Source: Candidatus Bathyarchaeia archaeon
GTDB taxonomy: Archaea; Thermoproteota; CALKCG01; B24
Direction: 5' to 3'
Length of the DNA: 64,000 nucleotides
Assembly (NCBI GenBank): GCA_038870975.1
Contig: JAVZJD010000002.1
Coordinates: 5,922-69,921, forward strand
The notes beneath the pieces are model-generated. The model saw only the letters and a list, made by a program, of their open reading frames with translations. It did not search any database and was not told where the DNA came from. The translations under genes and the position numbers were made by a program. Below, piece by piece: positions 28,870 through 55,874 of the stretch (positions are counted from its first letter, which is position 1; each line of letters starts with the position of its first letter).

Positions 28870-30234
28870 TTAAACGTTTCCCATGCCTAACATCTTGTAC
28901 TCTTGCACCAGCTTCCTAGCCTTCTCCAGCCACGTTGGGAATTCCTCCGGGTTCTCTGGGAAATTCTGGTAGTGTGTTTTAACTGTTTTCATGAGTTCAG
29001 ATGTTTTTCTAAGCCTTATGACGAAGTTGAGCTTTCCTACTGAGCGTAGAAACCTAAGGGCTTTATCTGTGATTGTGAGTTTAACTTCACCGTATAGGCT
29101 GGCTTTTAAAACGTCTTCTTCAGCTATCAGCCTCCGGCTCATACCGTAGTTCAACTCTTCATCCGAAGCATTCTGGAGGAATACTCTGAAGACGTCTAGA
29201 GATGCCTGTTTAGAGCCGTATCCCCTCATGTATGCTACGTTGTAGCTCCAAAGACCCCTGTAGCTTACATCTCCCTTCTCTAAAGCCTTCGCGGCGGTTT
29301 CACCTGCGAGTTTTCCAGCTGTCATAGATGGTCCTATTCCACCTCCGTGGATCGGGTTTACTTGGCAGGCTGCATCACCTACCACTATTAAGCCGTTTGA
29401 AACCATGTTGTCTAGAGGTCTTCTCGTTGGGACGAAGGCTCCTCTTCCGTCTAAAACCTCAGCCTTTTTAAGCCATGGAAGCTTATCCTCTATGAACCTT
29501 GTGAAGTAGCTTTTAATCTCCATTTTGGCTTTTGAAGCTTGAACACCCAGCCCTATGTTGACCTTGTTTAAACCCTTCGGGAATAGCCAGAAGTATCCCC
29601 CTGGAGCGTACTCTTGGCTTAGGTATATGTAGCCGAACGTTCTATCTTCAATTTCGCCTTCTAAGGTTCTAACCTCTCTGTAGGCTATTTCAAGCTCTTC
29701 TCTTTCCACTGTTTTTTCAAAGCCAGGCGTATCTGGGGCTTTACTCCTGAGGACTGCGGATACACCTGAGGCGTCTATGAAAACCCTCCCCCTTAAAACT
29801 CCGCTTGAATTACGGCCTCTGACTTTAACGGCGACTATGTAGTTGTTTTCAACTACAGGTTCTAAAACGGTGGTTCTATCCATAAGCTCTACGCCTGCGT
29901 TTAAAGCCTCTTTGAGAAGCCTCCCTCCGAATTCGCGTCTATCGACCATGAAGGCTTTAGCCCCTAGACCGTATATTCGGAATGAGGTTTCAAAGTCTGG
30001 TGAAACTACTTTAACGCCTTCAAGCTCCCAGCAGAGTTCGGAGCCTGTGGGGTATTTTAAGCCTATGTTGTCGAAGTGGTGTTTACCGACTGCGTCTCCA
30101 CAGGCTTTAAGTCCTACGTTTTCAGATGGCTTAGACTCTAAGAGGCATACTCTTAAGCCTTTCTCAGCGGCTGTCTTTGCGGCTAGACATCCTCCTGTTC
30201 CAGCACCTACGACTACAACATCGTAGAGCTCCAT
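28870..30234 (-). CDS. geranylgeranyl reductase family flavoprotein (archaeal lipid saturase type)
   Basis: FAD motif [14 protein letters not shown] and a later VGDAA motif, in a 454-aa archaeal GGR-like layout. Confidence 0.75.
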
Positions 30235-30250
30235 GTCTCTATATTATGCC

Positions 30251-30739
30251 TCATCTGGGAGATTTATGTTTTCTCAGTAGTCTACCGTCTTCGTCTATTT
30301 CACCTAGTTTCACTCTTGTGGAGGATATGGGTTTTCCATCTTCGGCTAAAACCATTGGAATCTTCACTATTTCAATGGTTTTCAAGCCCCGTGCTTCTCT
30401 AAGCCTGTTTATTTCCAAGGCTCTACTGTAGGTTTCATCGCTGACTACTATGGCTTCTACAGCCGGGTTGTATGCTGCTGGACCGTAGGGGTCTTCTATG
30501 GCTGTTATAATAGCTCTATCTTCCACTCGCATGTCTTCCAACAGCTTCTTAAGGCTTTCCAGTCTTTCAACGTAGGGTTTGACTTCATGGGCTTTCCCCA
30601 TGCTTCTGGCAAATTTGTCTGTCGTAAGCCCTATGAGGACGTTATCTCCGAGGTTGAAAGCCGTAATTAGAAGCTCTCTATGCCCCTTATGGATGGTGTC
30701 GAATGTACCTCCTAATGCGACGAGTCTGAATCTGCGCAT
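30251..30739 (-). CDS. coaD: archaeal phosphopantetheine adenylyltransferase (cytidylyltransferase fold)
   Basis: GGTFDTIHKGH nucleotidyltransferase motif in a ~160-aa archaeal PPAT-like (COG1019) protein. Confidence 0.65.
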   Translation of the reverse strand: MRRFRLVALGGTFDTIHKGHRELLITAFNLGDNVLIGLTTDKFARSMGKAHEVKPYVERLESLKKLLEDMRVEDRAIITAIEDPYGPAAYNPAVEAIVVSDETYSRALEINRLREARGLKTIEIVKIPMVLAEDGKPISSTRVKLGEIDEDGRLLRKHKSPR

Positions 30740-30772
30740 AGCTTCATGTAGTGTTTAAGAGAGTTTAAATAG

Positions 30773-32023
30773 TTAAGTAGTACTATTCGATGTAGTGGAT
30801 TTTTCCAACCCTCTATGAGCCTGCATCAGTATTGCTAGTGCTACTGCTTGAGTTGAAACGGCGAATATCAGCGTTAAGACTGGTTGTACGTTGAAGTCTA
30901 TCATTAAGCCGTAGATGGCTCCGCTTGCTAGGAAGCCTACGCCGTAGGCTGCGTTGAAGATTCCATATGCCAATCCTCTTGAAGAGGTTTCTGTAAACGC
31001 TGAGACTGCTGCTCTGTATGTGGATTCTTGTACGCCTAAGACTACTCCGAAGAATATCGATGCGATTATTAGGGTTGTTAAGCCTGAGTTTAGCATCGTG
31101 AATACTGGTGGGAGTATTGAGAGTATGAAGGGTAGGGCTAGGATTTTAATGCCCAGTCTATCGTATAGGTATCCTGAGGTTAGGGCTGCTGGAGCGTCAA
31201 TCCCCTGGATTAGAAGGTATATTAGTGGAACTATCCACTGCTGTTGCTCCGGCTGTAGTATGGCTGAGGCTTTGTACAGTATTAGCGATGCGGGGATTAA
31301 ACCTACGGTGTTTAAAGTAACTGCTAGTGTGTAAACGTAGAATGGTTTTCTAAGGGCTTTATCGGCTTTTTTAACGTCTACTGTAGGCTCCAGTACTGTT
31401 TTAGAGCCTATTCTCAAGTATGTGTATGTTAATGCTGCTATGAGTATTGTGAACGGTATTGTCAGTATGCTGAAGCTCAACCTGTAGTTGTTTCCACTGT
31501 AGAGCATTAGCGTTGCCACTAGTAGTGGTCCTGCAACTGCTCCTACTTGGTCTAGGAATTCATGTATTCCGAATGCTTTACCTGCCCCCATTCCTCTACT
31601 CACTATGGATATGATCGTGTCTCTAGAGGGTGATCTACAGGCTTTCCCAAGTCTTTCAAGCAGTACTAGGATTGCCGCTATTTCCCATCCGTTTGCGAGG
31701 CCTAGAAGCGGTATGGAGGCTATAAGCCCATAGCCTATGAACATGAAGACCCAGTATGCTCTAGTGGTGTCCGCTAGGAAGCCGCTGATGAGTCTTGTAG
31801 CGTATCCTAGGAATTCTCCGAGTCCGCTGACGAGTCCTACGACGAATGCTGTAGCGCCTAGAAACTTCAGGAAGTCGGGTATTAGTCCTCTTGAGCCTTC
31901 GTATACTATGTCGCCCATTAGGCTTACTACTCCAAGGAGTAGGATGCTTACGTAGACGCTTCTCAATTCTATGGTGTGTTTCACGTTAGACCGCCAGTTT
32001 AAGCTAAGTATCGCATACTCCAA
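30773..32023 (-). CDS. MFS transporter
   Basis: About 12 predicted TM segments with a hydrophobic MFS-like layout. Confidence 0.65.
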   Translation of the reverse strand: MEYAILSLNWRSNVKHTIELRSVYVSILLLGVVSLMGDIVYEGSRGLIPDFLKFLGATAFVVGLVSGLGEFLGYATRLISGFLADTTRAYWVFMFIGYGLIASIPLLGLANGWEIAAILVLLERLGKACRSPSRDTIISIVSRGMGAGKAFGIHEFLDQVGAVAGPLLVATLMLYSGNNYRLSFSILTIPFTILIAALTYTYLRIGSKTVLEPTVDVKKADKALRKPFYVYTLAVTLNTVGLIPASLILYKASAILQPEQQQWIVPLIYLLIQGIDAPAALTSGYLYDRLGIKILALPFILSILPPVFTMLNSGLTTLIIASIFFGVVLGVQESTYRAAVSAFTETSSRGLAYGIFNAAYGVGFLASGAIYGLMIDFNVQPVLTLIFAVSTQAVALAILMQAHRGLEKSTTSNSTT

Positions 32024-32355
32024 CCATTAAAGTTTACTATTAAAGTTTAAACCTATTCTACGATATTTAGGGTTTGCCCTCTACTCTAATCGGTGGAAAT
32101 ACCTAGTCGACATCGCCTCCTTTATAACTTTAGGGTAAATATATAGGTGTAATTCAAATAGAAGGTGATAGTTCTTGTCCAAGAAAATAATACAACGCAT
32201 GAGAACTTTCTCTTCCATATTCAGGAGATCAACACCAGAAGTAGTGAAAAAACAAGTTAAACTACCCTACACATTCAGACCGATACTACCAGAGTATAAA
32301 ATATATCGAAACATACTGGATTAAAGAACCCCTCTCAAAAATAACCATAGCCTCA

Positions 32356-33858
32356 ATGCCCGAGCTCGGCGGAGCATACGGATACTTCATATCCGAAGTA
32401 GAACTTCTAGAAGAAGAGAGAAAAGTCACCGATAAACTCATAGACATGCTTTCATCAGAGCTAAAACCGCCAACGGTTGAAGAAGTAGACCTTAGAAAGC
32501 ACGTACTAGCCGAAGCCGAAAGAATCATAGGCAAATACCGTTCAATGCTATCAGTAGCTAAAGAAAGCAAAGAAAAAGTACTCTACTACGTCGAAAGAGA
32601 CCTATTAGGCTTCGGACCGATACACGCAATGGTTTTAGACCCTAGGATTGAAGACATATCATGCGAAGGCGTAGGAGGACCCGTATACGTATGGCATAGA
32701 GACTACGAAGGACTCCCCTCAAACCTAGTATTCTTAGACGCTAAATTCCTAGACGACCTAATAGTTAAACTCGCACACATAGGCGGTAAACACGTTTCAA
32801 CGGCATTCCCAATAGTCGACACCATGATATACGGTAAACACAGATTCGTAGCAACCTTCAAACGAGAAGTCACACCTAAAGGCTCTACATTCACGATAAG
32901 AAAATTCAGAGAAAAACCCCTATCGATAACCGAACTCGTAAAATCCCACACCGTAACCGCAAGAATAGCCGCATACTTCTGGCTCCTCCTCGAAAACAGA
33001 ATGTCGATAATCATCATAGGGGGAACAGGAGCAGACAAAACAACACTTCTAAACGGACTAGCAAGCCTAATAAACCCAGCGATGAAAATATGCACAGTAG
33101 AAGAAATAGCAGAGTTAAACCTATCACATGAAAACTGGGTTCAATTCGTAAGCCGTGAAAGCTACGGCATCGGAGGCGCTGCTTCAAGCGCCATACCGCT
33201 ATTCAGCCTTGTAAAGACAACACTCAGATACAGACCAGACTACATAGTCGTCGGTGAAGTAAGAGGAGAGGAAGCCTTCGTACTATTCCAAGCCTTAGCA
33301 ACAGGACACGGCGGAATGTGCACACTACACGCTGAAGACGTAGACTATGCGATTAAAAAGCTTACAAGCCCACCTATGAACGTAGCCGAAGTATACATAC
33401 CTCTTATGAACGTAGTCGTAGAAGTCGAAAGAGTACATCTACCAAAGCCTGTAAGCGGAGCTACATTCGGAAGAAGAGTTAGAGAAGTATCCGAAATCAT
33501 AAGCCACAAGGAGTTTCTAAAAGTCTTCTCATGGAACCCAATAACAGACGAATTCTCATCGAGGCTTGAGGAAAGCATACTACTGAGGAAAATAGCCCTT
33601 AAAACAGGTAAAGACTTCCAAGACCTACTCGACGAAATAGACAAGAGAGAAGTAATAATCAGATGGATGGTTGAAAAGGGAATATTCCAAAACGAAGACG
33701 TAGCCAAAGTAATATCGCAATACTACATATCGCCAGATGCAATCTACAACGTAGCATCCATGGAGCTAGCAGTACCGATAAAAATCAAACTACCTGCACT
33801 CGTGCAAATGGGTGAAAACCCATCAACGGAGAAGGAGGAAAGTCAAACCCCATCATAA
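32356..33858 (+). CDS. FlaI/VirB11/PilB-type secretion ATPase, N-terminally disrupted with an aberrant Walker A
   Basis: Walker B DYIVVGEVRGEEA and His box TGHGGMCTLHA are intact, but Walker A reads GGTGADKTT (Asp where Gly is expected, codon gac 33034-36). Homologous N-terminal coding continues upstream in another frame from the ATG at 32199. Confidence 0.7.
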   Translation: MPELGGAYGYFISEVELLEEERKVTDKLIDMLSSELKPPTVEEVDLRKHVLAEAERIIGKYRSMLSVAKESKEKVLYYVERDLLGFGPIHAMVLDPRIEDISCEGVGGPVYVWHRDYEGLPSNLVFLDAKFLDDLIVKLAHIGGKHVSTAFPIVDTMIYGKHRFVATFKREVTPKGSTFTIRKFREKPLSITELVKSHTVTARIAAYFWLLLENRMSIIIIGGTGADKTTLLNGLASLINPAMKICTVEEIAELNLSHENWVQFVSRESYGIGGAASSAIPLFSLVKTTLRYRPDYIVVGEVRGEEAFVLFQALATGHGGMCTLHAEDVDYAIKKLTSPPMNVAEVYIPLMNVVVEVERVHLPKPVSGATFGRRVREVSEIISHKEFLKVFSWNPITDEFSSRLEESILLRKIALKTGKDFQDLLDEIDKREVIIRWMVEKGIFQNEDVAKVISQYYISPDAIYNVASMELAVPIKIKLPALVQMGENPSTEKEESQTPS

Positions 33859-33918
33859 CCCCCTCTTTTAAGAAAAACTTATCTCAAACAGTTAAACCCA
33901 TTATATCATGATTGGAAA

Positions 33919-34836
33919 TTGTCAAGTACTAAACTGAAGGAAGAATTCCTAAAACTCCTAGAAACAGATAGAGAATTCAGATACCTCGTCATAAGCCATC
34001 TAGGACTAATAGAGCTAATAGAAGGGCAGAGGAAAATACTCGAAGAACTTAAAATCCTACACGAAAACCAGGAGAAACTATGGGAGAATGCAAACAAGCT
34101 ATGGGAAGAAGTTAAAAGCCTCAGAGAGGGGCAAGAGAAACTATGGATGGAGGTTAGACTTCTCAGAGAAGAACAGGAGAAGCTTTGGCAGGAGGTTAAG
34201 AACCTCAGAGAGGGACAGAACAAGCTTTGGGAAGAGGTTAAAAGTTTAAGGAAGGGCCAGGAAAAACTGTGGGAGAATCAGAACAAGCTATGGGAGGAAG
34301 TTAAAAGCCTTAGAGAGGGACAAGCGAAGTTGTGGGAGAATGCAAACAGACTATGGGAGGAAGTAAAACACCTCAGAGAAGGGCAGAACCGGCTATGGGA
34401 AAACCAGAACAGGCTCTGGAAAAGCCAGGAAAGAATGAGAGATGAGTTTAGATCTTGGACTATACAAGGATTCGGTGAACTAGCAAAGTTTGCAGGGGTA
34501 TCATTTAAAGAATTCGTTAGAAGCTTCCTAACTAAACACCTCAGAGAAATGGGCTTAATACCAGCAGATGGAGAATTGAAGAAAATAGTCATAGATGGGG
34601 AAGAGATAAACATCTTCTTTGAAAACCCACTTATAATTGGAGAAGTAACATCTAGCGTTGAAAGTATTGAAGAATTGGAAAAACTATTGAAGAGGGCGGA
34701 GCTTGCAAGGGAAAAGTACGGAAGAGAACCTATGAAATACCTAATCGCATTAACAGCCTCAGCCTCAATAGCCGATGAAATTAAAGTGCGAGCTAAAATA
34801 AACAACGTAGAGCTAATCCTCGGAAAAATAAGTTGA
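33919..34836 (+). CDS. coiled-coil repeat protein with a degenerate PD-(D/E)XK-like C-terminal domain (DUF3782-like)
   Basis: Heptad-based LWE[EN].. repeats (LWENANKLWEEVKSLREGQEK and variants) are followed by a globular domain (VIDGEEINIFFENPLIIGEVTSS). It is a paralogue of 37300-38079. Confidence 0.6.
   Translation: MSSTKLKEEFLKLLETDREFRYLVISHLGLIELIEGQRKILEELKILHENQEKLWENANKLWEEVKSLREGQEKLWMEVRLLREEQEKLWQEVKNLREGQNKLWEEVKSLRKGQEKLWENQNKLWEEVKSLREGQAKLWENANRLWEEVKHLREGQNRLWENQNRLWKSQERMRDEFRSWTIQGFGELAKFAGVSFKEFVRSFLTKHLREMGLIPADGELKKIVIDGEEINIFFENPLIIGEVTSSVESIEELEKLLKRAELAREKYGREPMKYLIALTASASIADEIKVRAKINNVELILGKIS
34078..34428 (+). repeat. in-frame tandem repeats built from 21-bp modules (42- and 63-bp super-units) encoding the LWE heptads
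   Basis: Near-identical DNA units occur at about 34100, 34225, 34288 and 34351, for example ctatgggaagaagttaaaagcctcagagaggggcaagagaaa. Confidence 0.8.
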
Positions 34837-49526: not shown

Positions 49527-49857
49527 GATTTAATACATGTAGATGAAGAGTTAAAGGAAGTAATCATAGATGGATAGGAGATAACATTTTTCCCTAGATT
49601 TTTCTGGTTTTCAAGGCTTTATTCGTCGGTTTAAAGTTTATCGAGAAATTGAAACTACTCCTTGATGGCATCGGAGTTGACGTGCATAATTGGCTAGTGT
49701 CTTTCACCCAGCAGATTTTTTAAAGACTCTGGGGCAAGTAAACATTTGTTTCATCATAGAGGTGAAGTAGAATAAACCTCACCTGTTTTCAGTTGATGAA
49801 AGCATATTTCTGAAGATTATGGGCTTAGCAGTACATTCTCTTTGGGCGTTTGACCAG

Positions 49858-50379
49858 TTAAACGGTAGACCTTTTAATCTTAGGAAGAGTTTCAATAGTA
49901 AACTTGGCGATTTGTTCTTTTGTAAGTCCGTACTCCCCATTCAACTTACTTATTTTACCCTGTTTAAACATAGATGCAAGAGTATTATAGACTGTTTTCA
50001 AGGCTTTATTCGTTGTTTTAGCGAGCTCAGACGGTGTCAAAGACTCTTTACTCAGTTTTCCAAGTCTAAAACCTAAGTAGGCTCCTACTAAGCTCAGCAT
50101 TATAGCGTCTTCAGCGGATAAATCCGTTCTCTTAAGAACTACTCCATTATCTGTTACTTGGAGAAATTCAGAACATTCTCTGATAAGCGTGTCAAAGTTG
50201 GGCTCGAAGACTATTTTCGAAATCGCCTCATAAGACGGGTATACTTTAGAAAGCCATTCAAAGAAAGCCCTTAAAACAACGTCAGACTCGCCTTTGAAAG
50301 TTGCTTCTAAAGAGCCTATTTTAACATTCAACTCTATACTACTCAACAAGTTCACCTTTAAGCCTAGGTGCAACTTCAC
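49858..50379 (-). CDS. two-domain wHTH protein, paralogue 1 of a four-member local family
   Basis: The N-domain IELNVKIGSLEATFKGESDVVLRAFFEWLSKVYP aligns with the other three. The C-terminus is helix-turn-helix-like (LTPSELAKTTNKALKTVYNTLASMFKQGKISK). The likely start is the TTG at 50346, overlapping the upstream stop. Confidence 0.6.
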   Translation of the reverse strand: MKLHLGLKVNLLSSIELNVKIGSLEATFKGESDVVLRAFFEWLSKVYPSYEAISKIVFEPNFDTLIRECSEFLQVTDNGVVLKRTDLSAEDAIMLSLVGAYLGFRLGKLSKESLTPSELAKTTNKALKTVYNTLASMFKQGKISKLNGEYGLTKEQIAKFTIETLPKIKRSTV

Positions 50380-50836
50380 TTATGAAGTACTTCAACCCCT
50401 TCGAAGTAATCCTATATTCGCCTCTTTCCACCTTCTCGACAAGATAACCATTCTGAAGCTCACTAAGTCTAGCGCTGATAGAACTTTTAGATTTACCCAA
50501 TCTTCCAGAGATCTCTTCAAGTGAAAGTGAAGCCTTATCGGATTTGCCGAATAGGTAGGCGAGATATTTAACGATCAAAACTAGTAGACAGCCTTCGAAA
50601 ATAGTCAACTTCTTCATATCGGCTAAAACAGTGGGTTCAGGATGTACTGTAACTAAATCCTTTAAACCCTTGGAGACCTCCTCTAAATCCAAGCTTAGAG
50701 TCAAATTTTTCACAAGGCTGAAAGTCGGATAGACGTCTGATATGAATTTGATAAGACTTCTCAAAACCTGCTCGGCATCCCCTGAAAACTCCAACTCTCC
50801 ACCCTGGAATGAGACTTTAACTTTAACCTCGCTCAT
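50339..50836 (-). CDS. two-domain wHTH protein, paralogue 2
   Basis: N-domain VKVKVSFQGGELEFSGDAEQVLRSLIKFISDVYP and C-terminal winged helix LSLEEISGRLGKSKSSISARLSELQNGYLVEKVERGEYRITSKG. It overlaps the upstream gene by 4 nt. Confidence 0.65.
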   Translation of the reverse strand: MSEVKVKVSFQGGELEFSGDAEQVLRSLIKFISDVYPTFSLVKNLTLSLDLEEVSKGLKDLVTVHPEPTVLADMKKLTIFEGCLLVLIVKYLAYLFGKSDKASLSLEEISGRLGKSKSSISARLSELQNGYLVEKVERGEYRITSKGLKYFISEVAPRLKGELVE

Positions 50837-51381
50837 AACATTCCTCCCCTAATCTTTGGGATAATCATCTTCTCAACCCACATTTGACCTTGAGCTGAAA
50901 GCTTCCACACGACATCCTTCGGGTCAGGCTTGAAAACTCTACCCGATTCAGCCATCTCCTTAAGTCTAGCTGACACGTTTGAAACCTTAAAGCCCGAATT
51001 CTGCAAAAGTAGAGCTATAGTTTTAGGGTCAGACTTCTGCTCTTTAAATGCATAAAGTAGCAAACCTATAGCTTCATACTGGCTTAACTTAGCCTTCTCC
51101 GAAGCCACTATCAAAGGACCGTCAACGCTCCACTCAATCAAACCCTCTAATAGGTTAGATGTCTGTGGAGCCTTTTCAGCAGCCTCGAAATGCTTGAACG
51201 TAGAAGGCTGAAAATCCTCTACAGTCAAACTACTTTTAAGTAACTCCTTAAAACCCATTGAAGAAGCTTCTTCTAAAGCCGTTTTAACAAGGCTGAGCTT
51301 TTCACGGAGTTCTTCAACCGTTGAAAACTCAAACTCTAGAGAGCCAAACCAAGACCGGAAGATCGCTTTTACTCCGCTCAT
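50833..51381 (-). CDS. two-domain wHTH protein, paralogue 3 (first gene of the trio)
   Basis: N-domain FRSWFGSLEFEFSTVEELREKL and C-terminal IALLLQNSGFKVSNVSARLKEMAESGRVFKPDPKDVVWKLSAQG. An AT-rich 224-nt upstream region precedes it. Confidence 0.6.
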   Translation of the reverse strand: MSGVKAIFRSWFGSLEFEFSTVEELREKLSLVKTALEEASSMGFKELLKSSLTVEDFQPSTFKHFEAAEKAPQTSNLLEGLIEWSVDGPLIVASEKAKLSQYEAIGLLLYAFKEQKSDPKTIALLLQNSGFKVSNVSARLKEMAESGRVFKPDPKDVVWKLSAQGQMWVEKMIIPKIRGGML

Positions 51382-51605
51382 ATCTGTAGAAAAGATTAGA
51401 TAAACCAGTATATAAATCTATTCAAAAAATCCTTTAAAATTCCCATATTTAAAAACACTTACATAACCTTTTTACCATAATTTTCACGGATAAAAAAGGC
51501 GTGGTAAAATATTTAGGAATAAACTAGGAAAATTTTATTTAAATTCTACATGGTTTTATCCATAAAACAGTTAATATTTCCTCCATTGAATACTTAAGTG
51601 AAAAC

Positions 51606-52010
51606 TCACAAACTTGGAGGCTTCTTCTGAATATACACGTATTTACCCTTTCTACCGCCTCTATACAGTATATCGCTTCTAACTAAATCAGCTAAAGTAT
51701 GCGCAACAGCAGTCCTATCGTAGTGGAAGCCACGTTTACTGAGCTCTTCATGAACATCGCTGAGCGTCCTCCCAGTACTAAACCATCCGGTCCTCCAAAG
51801 ATTGAGTAGAACACCCCTGCAAGTTGATGGAGTGGGCTCTTTAACAATTTCAAACTCAGGCTTACTAAGCTCTCTATCCAGTAGAGAGACGTTTTGAAAT
51901 GCACTTAGAAATTCTTCAACAGTCTTCTTAAGCTGGTCTTCTCTACACTCAATCTCTGCTTCGACTCCTTGATACTTTAACTTTATCCTGACTTTTCTAT
52001 CGGATTCCAT
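51606..52010 (-). CDS. two-domain wHTH protein, paralogue 4, divergent from nurA
   Basis: N-domain RKVRIKLKYQGVEAEIECREDQLKKTVEEFLSAF and C-terminal RTLSDVHEELSKRGFHYDRTAVAHTLADLVRSDILYRGGRKGKYVY. I prefer the ATG at 52010 over the ORF-track start at 52049, which would cover the TATA element. Confidence 0.6.
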   Translation of the reverse strand: MESDRKVRIKLKYQGVEAEIECREDQLKKTVEEFLSAFQNVSLLDRELSKPEFEIVKEPTPSTCRGVLLNLWRTGWFSTGRTLSDVHEELSKRGFHYDRTAVAHTLADLVRSDILYRGGRKGKYVYIQKKPPSL

Positions 52011-52021
52011 ATTCAACCACT

Positions 52022-52043
52022 TTGTTGATTGAACAATCAACAA
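52022..52043. promoter_or_regulatory. 10+2+10 inverted repeat ttgttgattg-aa-caatcaacaa (operator candidate)
   Basis: Perfect 10-nt arms lie in the 77-bp divergent region, between the TATA-like box and the paralogue-4 start. Confidence 0.5.
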
Positions 52044-52048
52044 CAACA

Positions 52049-52056
52049 CTTATAAG
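52049..52056. promoter_or_regulatory. palindromic TATA-like box cttataag shared by the divergent promoters
   Basis: It lies 32-39 nt upstream of the nurA ATG (52088) and 39-46 nt upstream of the paralogue-4 ATG (52010). That spacing fits archaeal TATA-to-TSS distances with very short leaders. Confidence 0.4.
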
Positions 52057-52087
52057 GGAGTACATCTACATATAGAGTGGTGATTGC

Positions 52088-53236
52088 ATGGATATAAACA
52101 TTTCCCCCTCAACAAATCACTCTAAGGATGACCCTCAAAGTCTCCCATGGCTTAAAGAAATGCCCTACGTAAAACTCTACCAAGAACTCGTCGACACAGG
52201 TACAGAGCTACTTCTCAATAGGCTTAAAACATATAGAAAAGAAGTTTACAAACTGGTAGATGAAGTCAAAAACAGGTTAAAAATATATAAAGCTGTTTAC
52301 GACAAAGATGGACCTGCTTCTTCTAGAATAATCGGAGTAGATGCAGGGAGAAACGGAACAGAGTACAAATTCGCATACATACCCCTATATGGAGCTATTG
52401 CGGTTCTAGTTGAAAACTGGGAGATTGTAGATGAACCACTGTGTGTAACAGGACCACCGGACGTATGGGCTTCAGAATTAGACCCAGATAAGCGTGAAAG
52501 TCTTCTACACATGGCTTTGGAATACCACGTAGCTACTAGAGCCGTAGAAAAGTGGAAACCAGACTATCTTCTACTTGATGGGGGGATAGTACTCAACCCT
52601 AAACTCTACCCAGATTTCCAAGTTTCACCACAGTATGAAGGAGACTTCTACTTCACAGTCATTACTGTCCTCGAACTTTTAAATACCTGTAGGAAACTCC
52701 ACGTTCCAGTTTTAGGCTTCGTTAAGCGTACACATATGAACTTCTACTCTTCATTCATGAGGAACAGTCAGATTAGAGACTCAACACTGATGAACTTCAT
52801 ACTTAAAGAAGGCGAATACTCTGAACCCTTCAAAGTTGAAAACATAGTGGCTGAATCCTACAGAACTGTGGCTGAAAGCCTAAAATACGATAAAAGCCTT
52901 CCAGTCATATACTCAAGTTACATAAAGACGAGTTCAGCCCCGTTCAGAGTGGAGGTTCCAATGTTCTGTTTAAACAAACTCGGAGAATTGATGTCCATCG
53001 TCTACACTATGGCAGGCTTCGACGGTATTCCATATCCTATACATGAAGCAGATAGGCTTTCAAGGATAACTAGACCAACTTCGAACATACACTCTTTAGT
53101 ACTCTACTCTAAAGCCTTAGAACTCGTCGAAAGCGGAGAAATGGAGCTTAAAGACCTAGACCTCCTAATGCTCGAGTATGGTGAAAGCTGGACGTTAAAC
53201 GGCAATCTTGAAGAACTTAGAGGTGGCGACGTTTGA
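52088..53236 (+). CDS. nurA: NurA-family 5'-3' nuclease
   Basis: NurA motif series in order: IIGVDAG, DYLLLDGGI, VLGFVKRTH and PYPIHEADRLSRIT. Confidence 0.7.
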   Translation: MDINISPSTNHSKDDPQSLPWLKEMPYVKLYQELVDTGTELLLNRLKTYRKEVYKLVDEVKNRLKIYKAVYDKDGPASSRIIGVDAGRNGTEYKFAYIPLYGAIAVLVENWEIVDEPLCVTGPPDVWASELDPDKRESLLHMALEYHVATRAVEKWKPDYLLLDGGIVLNPKLYPDFQVSPQYEGDFYFTVITVLELLNTCRKLHVPVLGFVKRTHMNFYSSFMRNSQIRDSTLMNFILKEGEYSEPFKVENIVAESYRTVAESLKYDKSLPVIYSSYIKTSSAPFRVEVPMFCLNKLGELMSIVYTMAGFDGIPYPIHEADRLSRITRPTSNIHSLVLYSKALELVESGEMELKDLDLLMLEYGESWTLNGNLEELRGGDV

Positions 53237-54777
53237 AACAGATAGGCTACATACTGTCAGGTTGCGACCAAAGTAAAATATCTTTCGTAGTCATGGAGGA
53301 TACCAGAGTCTACGTAAACAACTACTACTTCATAAACCATCCTTCAAGCTCAGCGGGAGAATTCAACCCAGTTTTACTGAGAGTCTATAAGATAACACCT
53401 TATAACCCTGAAATGACGATAGGAAGCTTCGGACCTATAGCTGGTAAAAAAGGTGAAAAAGCATACTACGGTAAAAAACTCGAATATCTAGTAGCTTGGG
53501 CTGAAGTCTTAGGTTACATATCTTGGGATGGCAAATGGAGAAGACTCGAATGTAGTCCCAATACTTGGGACTCAATCTACGAACCCACATACGAAGAACT
53601 AGAAGGATTCTTCATAAAACTCTCAAGCAAAAGCTTAACGGACAGAACAGACTTCCCAATAGCCATAGGCAGACACAGGGGTTTAAACATACCATTCCAC
53701 CTAGATTTAAACGCCATAGCCAAAGGACATATTTTTGTCGCTGGAATGACTCGAAGCGGCAAGAGTACTTTTGTCTTAAACCTTATAGCTAGAGCTCTTG
53801 AAAACGATTTAAAGCCTAGATTTATAATATTTGATAGAAGGTGCGAGTATTCCCTCCTGTCAAAATATGGAGCCACAGTACTCCCATACCTCAGCTTCGT
53901 ACCTAAAACCGAGTTGATCTCTCCAAGCCTTATAGTGTCTAGGCTTGGCTTAGATCCGAATAAGGCTGAAGGGAAGCTTCTATGTGAAGCTTTAAACTCC
54001 ATGAGAGCTGACGGCTCCGATTTAACTACTAAAAACGTACTAAGAAGATGCGTAGAACTCTCCCCATACTTGGTTTCAAGAGGCAGGGATTCAATTCTAT
54101 CTAAGATTAGATGGATTCTTGAGAAGCGCGGAGACACAGTATTCACGGAGGAGCATAAGCCTTTAAACATCTTAGAAGTGCTTTACGATAAACCAGCTGT
54201 AATCGTAGACTTCTCAGTCGATGCCAACATTGAAGACCAACAGCTTACCGCTAAATACTTGATACGCGAGGTTGTAAACCACGCTATTAAGTGTAGAGCT
54301 ACTGGAGATTTTGCCACAATATTTGTAATAGAAGAAGCACAGTACTTCGTACCTGAGAGAGGACTTAAAATAGAGGTTGGAAACCCTGAGAAAACAGGAG
54401 TAGATAAACAACTAATAGAAGCAATAAGTCAAGCTGGAGGATACAACGTAGGCTTTATAATAGTTACACAGAGACCTGCTTACATTTCAAAGTCAATAAT
54501 ATCACAGTGTAATACGATAGCGGCCTTCAGGCTTATGGCTGGCAACGACCAAGAAGCAATCATAAAATACTCTGAATACGGAAGTGAAAGAATGAGCGAC
54601 TACCTACCTGGACTGGCGGATCATGAAGCCCTCATATGGGGTATGGCGTCGCCAGTACCATTCCCAGTCACAGTAGAGATAGATGTTAAGGACTATCCGT
54701 CTAAAACAGGAGTGACGGCTAAAGTATCATGGGAGAGGATGAACCTTAAAACATCAAACCTTAAAATCCAACATTGA
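53233..54777 (+). CDS. herA: HerA/FtsK-superfamily hexameric ATPase (DUF87-type)
   Basis: N-terminal barrel-like segment, Walker A FVAGMTRSGKST and Walker B ATIFVIEEAQYFVP. The TTG start overlaps the nurA stop (TTGA). Confidence 0.7.
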   Translation: MKQIGYILSGCDQSKISFVVMEDTRVYVNNYYFINHPSSSAGEFNPVLLRVYKITPYNPEMTIGSFGPIAGKKGEKAYYGKKLEYLVAWAEVLGYISWDGKWRRLECSPNTWDSIYEPTYEELEGFFIKLSSKSLTDRTDFPIAIGRHRGLNIPFHLDLNAIAKGHIFVAGMTRSGKSTFVLNLIARALENDLKPRFIIFDRRCEYSLLSKYGATVLPYLSFVPKTELISPSLIVSRLGLDPNKAEGKLLCEALNSMRADGSDLTTKNVLRRCVELSPYLVSRGRDSILSKIRWILEKRGDTVFTEEHKPLNILEVLYDKPAVIVDFSVDANIEDQQLTAKYLIREVVNHAIKCRATGDFATIFVIEEAQYFVPERGLKIEVGNPEKTGVDKQLIEAISQAGGYNVGFIIVTQRPAYISKSIISQCNTIAAFRLMAGNDQEAIIKYSEYGSERMSDYLPGLADHEALIWGMASPVPFPVTVEIDVKDYPSKTGVTAKVSWERMNLKTSNLKIQH

Positions 54778-55026
54778 TATTTACCTAGAACTACTTTTGT
54801 TGCAGTACCATTAAGAGAGCTAAACTAAGCTTCATCATAATACAGAGAAAGTAAATTAGAATTCCACAGTTTGACGTAAGATTCTTAGAGTTCTACAAGT
54901 AAAGTCTTTATATTTTCCATTCAAAAGAAAATTCACCTGAGGAAGCTTGAAGAGGCCCGAAAAGAGATGGTGGAAGATTCAGGCATAAGCCTCGAAGACC
55001 TCATTGAAGAGATAGGCTGACAATAA

Positions 55027-55277
55027 ATGTTTCAAGTAATCGTATCTCAAAGAGCCAGAAACTCCCTGAGCACTACAAAAGAAGGATTATTGAGCTACTC
55101 TTAATTTTTCGTGAAAATCCGGTTCCAGCCGAATATTATGACGTAAAAAAGCTTAAAGGATGCGCAGATATTTATAGAGTTAGAATCGGCGATATTCGAG
55201 TGATCTACGAAATATTATGGGACCTTAATATGGTTCATGTATTACTAGTTGAATGGAGAGAAAGAGCCTACCCTTAA
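55027..55277 (+). pseudogene. frameshifted RelE/ParE-type toxin gene, with a truncated antitoxin remnant upstream (~54889-55020)
   Basis: ATG 55027 gives MFQVIVSQRAR... and then stops. The other frame continues LPEHYKRRIIELLLIFRENPVPAEYYDVKKLKGCADIYRVRIGDIRVIYEI...LLVEWRERAYP*, a classic RelE/ParE pattern. The upstream ORF (...RKLEEARKEMVEDSGISLEDLIEEIG*) lacks a start codon. Confidence 0.55.
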
Positions 55278-55874
55278 ACAAAAAGGAGGGGTTTGCGGGA
55301 GATATCACCAAGTAGTCGTTGGTTCAAATGCATCTGAAAATCGCTTCTATGCTATTAGATTTTGGTATTCCAGTTACAAACATTAATAACCAGACGCTTG
55401 ACGTATCTGGTAGAATCATGGTTTACGATAACAAGATAAAGGGTAATGGACTTAGGGTTTATGAGTTTATGCGGATACTATTCTCTAACGAATCATGGAT
55501 ATAGATAGGAGTCCGTAGATGGCGCTAAAACAACTATGAATGATGGCAGAGGCAGGTTCACGGAGCTGAAATACTACTACGGCGGATCATGGTCGAGTTG
55601 GAACGCTATAAAGTTTACAAATGGAAGTGGAAAAGCAGGTATGGAGTATCCACCGGACCCACCATACCGTGCTAAAGCCTTAGATACTAATGGGCTTATA
55701 ACGTGGGGAGGCTACGATGCAGACCCCTGAGAAAGCTGGCTACTAGCTACGGATAAGTAGCGCTTATGGTCTAGATGCTCAACACTTGCAAATAGCATTT
55801 TTCTCTGTTAGTATGGTAGAAAGGAATTTAAAAAAGTTAATAGGCACTCTACAAGCAGTGCCTACTCCAATAAA

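Follow-up and report, generated by a model that had tools for sequence, protein, structure and literature searches.

A HerA-NurA module of a Bathyarchaeia archaeon with its own set of small winged-helix proteins

Introduction

Does a nurA-herA gene pair that keeps company with four small genes for putative DNA-binding proteins belong to a defence system, or is it simply the DNA end-processing module of its lineage? The question is raised by a locus in a stretch of 64,000 nucleotides (nt) from a Candidatus Bathyarchaeia archaeon (GenBank assembly GCA_038870975.1, contig JAVZJD010000002.1, positions 5,922 to 69,921 of the forward strand). We call this whole stretch the window, and all coordinates without a locus label refer to it. 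HerA-NurA is regarded as the archaeal end-resection motor and is essential in the thermophiles tested, and its recruitment, activation and regulation form an acknowledged gap (PMC7690668, PMC12977600). In the established mechanism of the family, a HerA ring translocase feeds DNA to the NurA nuclease (PMC7690668, PMC12977600); how the pair is activated once a break has been recognized is unknown according to one review (PMC7690668). Genome analyses of ammonia-oxidizing archaea count HerA-NurA among the genes of homologous-recombination repair (PMC5797428, PMC7554672).

A first-pass annotation had read the locus as a nuclease-translocase effector, targeted or controlled by four winged helix-turn-helix (wHTH) proteins, that acts in defence or stems from a mobile element and is distinct from the canonical resection machinery. 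The comparative data presented here favour a different answer, namely that these are the lineage's regular nurA and herA, with mre11-rad50 merely located elsewhere. We consider it reasonably probable that the locus is a regular, vertically inherited HerA-NurA end-processing module of this archaeon, equipped with its own conserved small DNA-binding proteins.

Results

Linkage of the small genes to nurA-herA

The genes in question, and the spacer between two of them, are the following.

52088..53236, plus strand: nurA, a NurA-family nuclease with an RNase H-like fold (Pfam NurA match and conserved catalytic acidic residues)
53233..54777, plus strand: herA, a HerA-family hexameric translocase/ATPase (Pfam DUF87 and FtsK_SpoIIIE, Walker motifs, TTGA overlap)
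51606..52010, minus strand: wA1, 134 amino acids, an N-terminal beta-hairpin and helix, a disordered linker and a winged helix (ATG start, structure model, homologues)
50833..51381, minus strand: wB, first gene of the wB-wC-wD array (open reading frame, orthologues, merger of hidden Markov models)
50339..50836, minus strand: wC, central member of the wB/C/D family (open reading frame, AlphaFold model)
49858..50379, minus strand: wD, an acidic N-terminal beta-beta-alpha module and a basic winged helix (open reading frame, homology to wC)
51382..51605, no strand: AT-rich spacer of 224 nt from wA1 to wB (sequence)

Is the company of these genes specific to this genome? The nearest NurA relatives are all Bathyarchaeia. 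Locus L001, with 76% NurA identity, contains all four small genes. In L002 (55% identity), orthologues of wB and wC/D and a wA-like protein are encoded on the nurA-herA strand in one array, and therefore the association outlives rearrangement. Single co-directional arrays of small genes and nurA-herA occur in L002, L013 and L038. When the family hidden Markov models (HMMs) were mapped onto 41 reference-genome loci, two module types were found. In type 1, a wA gene adjoins NurA-HerA (17 loci), usually together with two to three wB/C/D genes. In type 2, NurA-HerA is followed by a calcineurin-like phosphoesterase of ~220 amino acids (Metallophos, 2e-17) and wHTH genes are absent; L004:8001-11355 is an example, as are ~17 other Bathyarchaeia loci (L022, L025-L033, L035 and L039-L041 among them). 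This phosphoesterase might be a minimal Mre11-like partner.

The reverse test took the small protein as its anchor. Metagenome contigs were scanned with the wA1 alignment alone; at least 579 stretches matched, and 80 loci were kept. NurA was divergently adjacent to wA1 in 65 of the 66 loci with at least 300 base pairs (bp) of flank, and HerA came after NurA in every locus with enough sequence (43/43). On the other side of wA1, wB/C/D genes were found in 25/39 loci and were missing within at least 3 kb in 14/39. Sequences related to wA1 bear Nitrososphaerota/Thaumarchaeota names, some of them are marine (Tara), and marine contigs of the Nitrososphaerota type that bear the cluster occur in many samples. 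Across Bathyarchaeia and Nitrososphaerota, the wHTH genes are linked to nurA-herA non-randomly and very strongly. The co-occurrence on which the first-pass annotation had staked its proposal survives both divergence and rearrangement.

Could the small genes nevertheless be unrelated local regulators that lie beside nurA-herA by chance? Archaeal genomes have many wHTH regulators, and the small proteins' own Pfam matches are weak, generic and below cut-off. Adjacency in 65/66 loci found from an independent anchor, maintained through rearrangements and across two classes, effectively refutes this explanation.

Connection with mre11-rad50 and genomic context

Three related loci have the cluster next to or near a genuine mre11-rad50 pair. 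L049 is contiguous and runs in the order wA2-like, wB-like, wC-like, wA1 and, beyond wA1, nurA-herA-mre11-rad50; its Mre11 is a Metallophos protein of 412 amino acids, and its Rad50 is an SMC_N/AAA_23 protein of 696 amino acids with a CPTC zinc hook. In L062, rad50-mre11 lie two genes past herA, within ~3.5 kb of the cluster. Similarly, in L081, five wHTH-family genes are followed by mre11-rad50 on the same strand, again within ~3.5 kb. In an indicative NurA tree (neighbour-joining, midpoint-rooted, without support values), the Mre11-Rad50-linked L049 branches off before L038, the window clade and the type-2 clade, and the window clade is nested within wHTH-linked clades. This order suggests that the wHTH linkage is ancestral and that type 2 is derived.

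The surroundings of the module are likewise those of a core genome. Its neighbours in other genomes include tRNA synthetases, ribosomal proteins and iron-sulphur assembly genes. In the window, it is flanked by genes for a hemerythrin/PAS protein, an SBF transporter, a flavodiiron-type protein, a Gfo/Idh/MocA oxidoreductase and an MFS transporter. In L001, too, the oxidoreductase gene lies to the right of the module, directly after HerA.

Is the locus, then, an accessory anti-virus or anti-plasmid system, or the remnant of a mobile element, with NurA-HerA as its effector and the wHTH proteins to target or license that effector? Several observations point that way. HerA ATPases pair with effectors in known defence systems (PMC11291478, PMC11472057). 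The window HerA scores slightly higher against the antiphage than against the repair models, and at 72 bits (cut-off 800) and 63.9 bits (cut-off 850), it lies far below the cut-offs of both NCBIfam antiphage HerA equivalogs. Furthermore, a decayed ParE toxin adjoins HerA, the class has a second NurA-HerA type, which shares one genome with the first, and in L131, a TIR-like effector carries the wB/C/D module as a fusion beside a PbeA-like helicase.

On the other hand, the mre11-rad50 links in three loci, the conserved housekeeping contexts with their right-flank synteny and a widespread distribution that follows lineage, extending to marine contigs of the Nitrososphaerota type, all argue against an accessory system. 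Among 2.9 million viral contigs, there are no relatives of wA1 or of the window NurA clade. PHROG and PADLOC have no match for NurA, wA1, wB or wD, and their matches for HerA and wC are to generic ATPase or HTH entries; the PADLOC HerA matches are confined to the C-terminal ATPase part. A tRNA scan of the window found no tRNA gene, an Rfam scan of the locus gave no match, and no integrase or transposase occurs among the annotated flanking genes in the window. Far from evolving fast, wA1 belongs to the most conserved components. Taken with the strain-specific nature of the flanking remnants, these points make an origin in defence or in a mobile element quite improbable, and the separation from canonical resection that the first-pass annotation had drawn is not supported, since the same cluster is linked to mre11-rad50 in L049, L062 and L081.

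Flanking scars

The island borders that had been proposed on either side of the locus correspond to two features that are not part of the system.

55023..55277, plus strand: decayed ParE/RelE-type toxin frame with no intact start (ParE_toxin match)
49607..49633, no strand: 27-nt copy of wD-internal sequence in the left spacer, downstream of wD

Both had been described correctly. The toxin frame matches ParE_toxin just below the cut-off (E = 1.3e-4, 22.9 bits, cut-off 23). The 1.1 kb that separate herA from the oxidoreductase gene (54778-55874) hold this frameshifted or start-less ParE/RelE toxin together with a possible antitoxin tail, and no counterpart of these 1.1 kb was detected in the close relatives compared. 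On the left, 49607-49626 equals 49994-50013 exactly over 20 nt, and the match extends to 27 nt (49994-50020) at 93%. None of the relatives examined has this repeat, which is thus confined to the window and was probably left behind by a duplication or recombination event linked to the duplication of wC that gave wD. HMM searches of the left spacer detected no decayed fifth paralogue. Neither the toxin frame nor the repeat has a counterpart in close relatives; both are small strain-level scars and not island borders.

Farther to the left (~30000-34000), the AT skew turns from about −0.2 to +0.27 near 32 kb and the GC content falls from 0.46 to 0.42, which may mark a change of coding strand or a compositional boundary.

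The NurA and HerA enzymes

The open reading frame (ORF) 52088-53236 matches Pfam NurA (PF09376) with an E value of 8.4e-18 (65.2 bits, cut-off 21) over profile positions 3-254 of 254. The ORF 53233-54777 matches DUF87/HerA (E = 2.6e-12, 47.8 bits, cut-off 23.2) and FtsK_SpoIIIE (E = 1.8e-7, 31.3 bits, cut-off 24). A check of translations and DNA bore out the ORF coordinates and motifs of the first-pass annotation: NurA holds IIGVDAG, LLLDGGI, GFVKRTH and HEADRLSR, HerA holds GMTRSGKST (Walker A) and IFVIEEAQ (Walker B), and the two genes overlap by the 4 nt TTGA, through which, judging from the DNA, herA is translationally coupled to nurA.

Alignment of 22 homologues shows that D85, E137, D164 and D322 of NurA are invariant. 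The only Protein Data Bank (PDB) match of the NurA profile is the Sulfolobus NurA 2YGK, with which the first three motifs (D/E/D) align. Comparison with solved structures was tried as a means of sorting HerA into the repair or the antiphage type, and it did not separate the types; the window HerA is about equally far from all solved HerA structures, whether from repair or antiphage systems.

Some HerA genes of close and intermediate relatives carry insertions of 280-525 amino acids exactly at the Walker A P-loop, after 'FVAGM' (L007:11146-14301, L015:11065-13575, L016:11071-15270 and L017:11026-13620). The HerA of L016 has a second insert that ends in a classic '...VHN/S' junction (the slash marks the junction), and the window HerA has none. 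These insertions are probably inteins.

The four small winged-helix proteins

How are the four small proteins related to each other? Their pairwise identity is 18-24%, and the pairwise E values are 1e-15 for wC-wD, ~1e-4 for wC-wB and ~1e-3 for wC-wA1. Iterated HMM searches join wB, wC and wD into one family, and profile-profile comparison of the wA family with the wB/C/D family gives a probability of 95.6% and an E value of 1.3e-8, with both domains covered. By these comparisons, all four are distant homologues, as had been proposed, and wD is a recent duplicate of wC. Orthologues of wB are found in relatives (L001_180, L002_151). The wB stop overlaps the wC start by ATGA, and the true wD start is most likely the TTG at 50346 or 50349, which is preceded by a GGTGA ribosome-binding site and gives an overlap with the end of wC; the three-gene translationally coupled operon claimed in the first-pass annotation would thus stand. 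The spacer between wA1 and wB (51382..51605) has no wHTH-family coding signal by HMM and no Rfam match and presumably holds the promoter of wB-wC-wD.

The AlphaFold model of wA1 shows a beta-hairpin and helix, a disordered linker and a winged helix with a predicted local distance difference test (pLDDT) score of 84-94. The model of wC (pLDDT 86) has an N-module of beta-hairpin and helix, a small middle region, the wHTH at residues 79-143 and a long C-terminal helix. In Foldseek searches against PDB and viral structures, the two models matched only generic wHTH folds, such as the DNA-binding domains of Fur, MarR and IdeR, with no match for the N-module. The charge distribution is common to all four proteins: the N-module is acidic, with an isoelectric point (pI) of 4.7-5.3, and the wHTH half is basic (pI 9.1-10.1); in wD, the two values are 5.0 and 9.7.

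The wA family consists of two subtypes. wA1, with the motif 'HYDRTAVAH...QKKPP', is always divergent from nurA, and wA2, with 'GKLRRWK...YVYV', runs in the same direction as nurA. An alignment of 50 wA1 homologues contains the invariant block 'GYHYDRTAVSH..L.DLVR', and wA1 identity plateaus at 47-52% where NurA and HerA drop to 21-28%. The conservation of the wB/C/D recognition helix is not strong. The wB/C/D profile, searched against 1.84 billion proteins, recovered 477 representative clusters. None of the four small proteins reaches any cut-off in Pfam or NCBIfam, wA1 and wB having no HTH match at all, and full-text searches of the literature found no description of the family or of its linkage to nurA-herA. 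The wHTH family is previously undescribed and deeply conserved, and it has no Pfam or NCBIfam model.

The divergent control region and a candidate operator

With the wA1 start at ATG 52010, the divergent control region shared by wA1 and nurA has the length of 77 bp that had been assigned to it, and it contains the following elements.

52011..52087, no strand: divergent control region of 77 bp between wA1 and nurA (sequence)
52022-52043: perfect 22-bp palindrome TTGTTGATTG-AA-CAATCAACAA
52050-52055: TATA-like TTATAA
52079-52084: NurA ribosome-binding site GGTGAT

The palindrome sits between the TATA-like element and the start of wA1; it occurs once in the window, where none is expected by chance. 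At least eight relatives have the arms unchanged and differ only in the 2-nt centre, and the palindrome is kept down to 76% NurA identity. At ~49% identity, a half-site is still present as TTGTTGA-N4-TCAACAA. Across 36 non-redundant loci from both archaeal classes, the pentamer TGTTG/CAACA is enriched 12-fold in the divergent zone, occurs in 35/36 loci and is the most widely distributed pentamer. Variable spacing of the half-sites could, we speculate, be tolerated thanks to the disordered linker of ~20 amino acids that connects the N-module of the protein to its wHTH.

Two other readings of this region were tried and rejected. The 15-mer TTGTTGATTGAACAA had seemed to be a conserved operator, with 71/76 matches just upstream of wA1; the statistic was withdrawn because in distant loci the sequence is the start of NurA, TTG-GTG-ATT-GAA-CAA, which encodes (M)VIEQ and in which GGTGA is the ribosome-binding site of the gene. 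The idea that the window NurA had lost an ancestral N-terminal peptide was also dropped, as an alignment of intermediate relatives shows GGTGATTGCATGG to be homologous to GGTGATTGAACAA, with the same start site. The promoter box TTGTTGATTGAACAA (52022-52036) closely resembles the ribosome-binding-site-plus-start of distant NurA genes, TTGGTGATTGAACAA, which encodes (M)VIEQ; loci with the TTGGTGATTGAACAA-type NurA start (L104, L059, L057 and others) carry a similar box near the wA1 start too.

What might wA1 do at this site? It is most likely a dedicated regulator. This reading, drawn from sequence comparison, rests on the facts that wA1 is always divergent from nurA, has a winged helix with a basic surface and an invariant recognition block and holds an identity plateau of ~50%, and that the promoter has a unique conserved palindrome and is enriched in the pentamer.

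Fusions of the module to other enzymes

Elsewhere, the wHTH module is fused to enzymatic domains, namely a Ser/Thr kinase, DUF488 and an unannotated nuclease-like domain. In P0107 (535 amino acids), two tandem middle-plus-wHTH units come after a Ser/Thr protein kinase, and in P0160 (326 amino acids), DUF488 comes after a full module. The N-domain of P0161 was considered as a PD-(D/E)xK nuclease on the strength of a motif seen by eye, and neither Pfam nor the PDB supported it. In L131:1094-5592 (and also in L132), module-bearing proteins surround a ResIII/XPB-like (ERCC3-type) helicase that matches PbeA in PADLOC (6e-22). These are a module-only protein of 141 amino acids, a fusion of 376 amino acids with a nuclease-like N-domain (PD-ExK-like motif by eye) and a fusion of 258 amino acids that joins a TIR-like N-domain (7.6e-12) to the module. 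The cluster looks like an undescribed conflict system that reuses the wHTH module.

The fusions and the L131 proteins show that the module can act as a DNA-binding appendage of enzymes, and therefore wB, wC and wD may also assist HerA-NurA physically. They lend some support to the notion of the first-pass annotation that the wHTH module serves as an adaptor for effector enzymes. In our assessment, wB, wC and wD are probably DNA-binding accessory partners. Conserved orthologous subtypes encoded by coupled genes form a pattern more typical of the subunits of a complex than of redundant regulators.

Could all of the wHTH proteins, wA1 included, be stoichiometric subunits or adaptors of a larger HerA-NurA machine and not transcription factors? 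A hetero-oligomer of the wA/wB/wC type would then recognize DNA ends or structures and recruit or gate the helicase-nuclease, filling the recruitment step that the canonical model gives to Mre11-Rad50. Consistent with this, three to five conserved subtypes (wA1, wA2, wB, wC) are kept across two archaeal classes, the acidic N-module and basic wHTH are common to all paralogues, and translationally coupled arrays are typical of complex subunits. In L002, L013 and L038, the small genes form one co-directional array with nurA-herA, and in L081, five family genes lie on the mre11-rad50 strand. The module's fusions to kinase, TIR-like, nuclease-like and DUF488 domains fit as well, and the activation of HerA-NurA after break recognition is an acknowledged gap (PMC7690668) that such a complex would fill. 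However, wA1 is always on the strand opposite to nurA, which is the classic arrangement of a local regulator, wB/C/D genes are missing within at least 3 kb in 14/39 loci, type-2 NurA-HerA modules have no wHTH genes at all, and the wB/C/D recognition helix is not strongly conserved. We therefore lean against this explanation while regarding it as possible; it is compatible with a housekeeping function and partly overlaps with the regular module described above.

In a more far-reaching form, a wHTH hetero-oligomer (wA1, wA2, wB, wC) would be an unrecognized component of double-strand-break repair in Bathyarchaeia and Nitrososphaerota that recognizes DNA ends or structures and recruits or licenses HerA-NurA alongside Mre11-Rad50 or in its place, and the module would have been re-deployed as a targeting domain in the TIR-like, nuclease-like and kinase fusions beside another helicase. 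We consider this form unlikely.

Discussion

The locus is a known system, HerA-NurA, in a lineage-specific variant with an undescribed set of wHTH partners. With the archaeal HerA-NurA of Sulfolobus, Pyrococcus and Thermococcus, whose genes form a herA-mre11-rad50-nurA operon, it shares the D/E/D/D residues of NurA and a coupled HerA ATPase, and related loci (L049, L062, L081) place the window clade beside mre11-rad50. It differs in its nurA-herA order, in having no mre11 or rad50 in the window, in scores below the equivalog cut-offs and in the wHTH family of three to five members, which has not been reported for the model organisms. The stand-alone HerA-NurA of Deinococcus-Thermus is likewise a two-gene helicase-nuclease operon without adjacent Mre11-Rad50; it has been described as a predicted minimal machine for end resection that was presumably acquired from archaea (PMC12977600). 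That operon is bacterial and has no associated wHTH family, whereas the window pair comes from an archaeon, was inherited vertically and remains attached to mre11-rad50 in some relatives. The anti-phage systems Sir2-HerA and DUF4297-HerA also combine a hexameric HerA ATPase with an adjacent degradative effector. In the window, however, the partner is NurA instead of Sir2 or DUF4297, HerA stays far from the antiphage cut-offs, and the cluster has a core-genome context and a lineage-wide vertical distribution with no association with viruses or defence islands.

As for the small proteins, wA1 resembles local wHTH regulators of the MarR/ArsR type in its winged helix, its divergent transcription and the palindromic element in the shared promoter, a candidate operator. 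Unlike these regulators, the family reaches no Pfam HTH cut-off, has a unique N-terminal beta-beta-alpha module and comprises several conserved paralogues, not one. Csa3a of Sulfolobus is a CARF-wHTH protein. It reportedly activates the transcription of DNA repair genes, according to the title of a paper cited in PMC12977600. It offers a precedent for a wHTH factor that controls repair genes, and the wHTH proteins of the window differ from it in having no CARF/ligand-binding domain.

How would the regular module work? The HerA ring ATPase would thread the DNA, and NurA docked on HerA would degrade the strands, a mechanism that is established for the family and that we infer here from the intact catalytic motifs. 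wA1 would most likely act as a transcription factor dedicated to this locus: bound to the TGTTG/CAACA-rich element of the 77-bp promoter region, a candidate operator, it would control its own gene and nurA-herA. wB, wC and wD (with wA2 in other lineages), paralogues of the same build that come from the translationally coupled array, would probably assemble through their N-modules into a DNA-binding hetero-oligomer. This hetero-oligomer might either co-regulate the operon or help HerA-NurA to find DNA and load onto it. Of the wHTH-controlled nuclease-translocase effector that was first proposed, the link to the wHTH proteins is retained, whereas the role in defence or mobility and the non-canonical function are not.

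A number of observations weigh against the regular, vertically inherited module. No Mre11 or Rad50 was detected in the 64-kb window, as had already been noted, so that the gene set does not share one operon in the canonical manner. NurA scores 21.9 bits against NCBIfam NurA_Sulf (cut-off 400), and HerA scores 45.9 bits against HerA_Thermprot (cut-off 800) and 47.7 bits against helicase_HerA (cut-off 970). The divergence of the pair from the curated repair equivalogs, which the first-pass annotation had recognized, is therefore real, and as both proteins lie far below every curated equivalog, repair or antiphage, similarity alone assigns no role and comparative context is needed. Within that context, the NurA tree is only indicative, and one metagenome-assembled genome (CAYYPV01) carries both module types (L013 and L020), so that paralogy with functional divergence is possible. 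The regulatory part of the explanation has weak points of its own. Perfect palindromes in the non-coding part of distant loci are not significantly longer than expected (mean best arm 4.8 versus 4.45 in shuffled sequence), and the pentamer enrichment test took the place of this test; in addition, part of the first motif signal is, by its sequence, NurA coding sequence. A single local operon rarely needs three to five conserved paralogous regulators, which suggests that some of the small proteins do more than regulate. Finally, the occurrence of the wB/C/D module beside TIR-like and nuclease-like domains and a PbeA/XPB-like helicase has the flavour of a conflict system.

What does the finding mean for these archaea? 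One false lead is removed, in that the locus should not be catalogued as a defence system. In sediment Bathyarchaeia and ammonia-oxidizing Nitrososphaerota, two ecologically dominant archaeal groups, a wHTH family has a closer tie to nurA-herA than mre11-rad50 has. Its members, together with a defined promoter element, are concrete candidates for the missing regulatory or recruitment layer of HerA-NurA, and cultured ammonia oxidizers would permit expression and binding experiments on the family. If the wHTH proteins are indeed the missing recruitment or control layer of archaeal end resection, the locus would be of greater interest.

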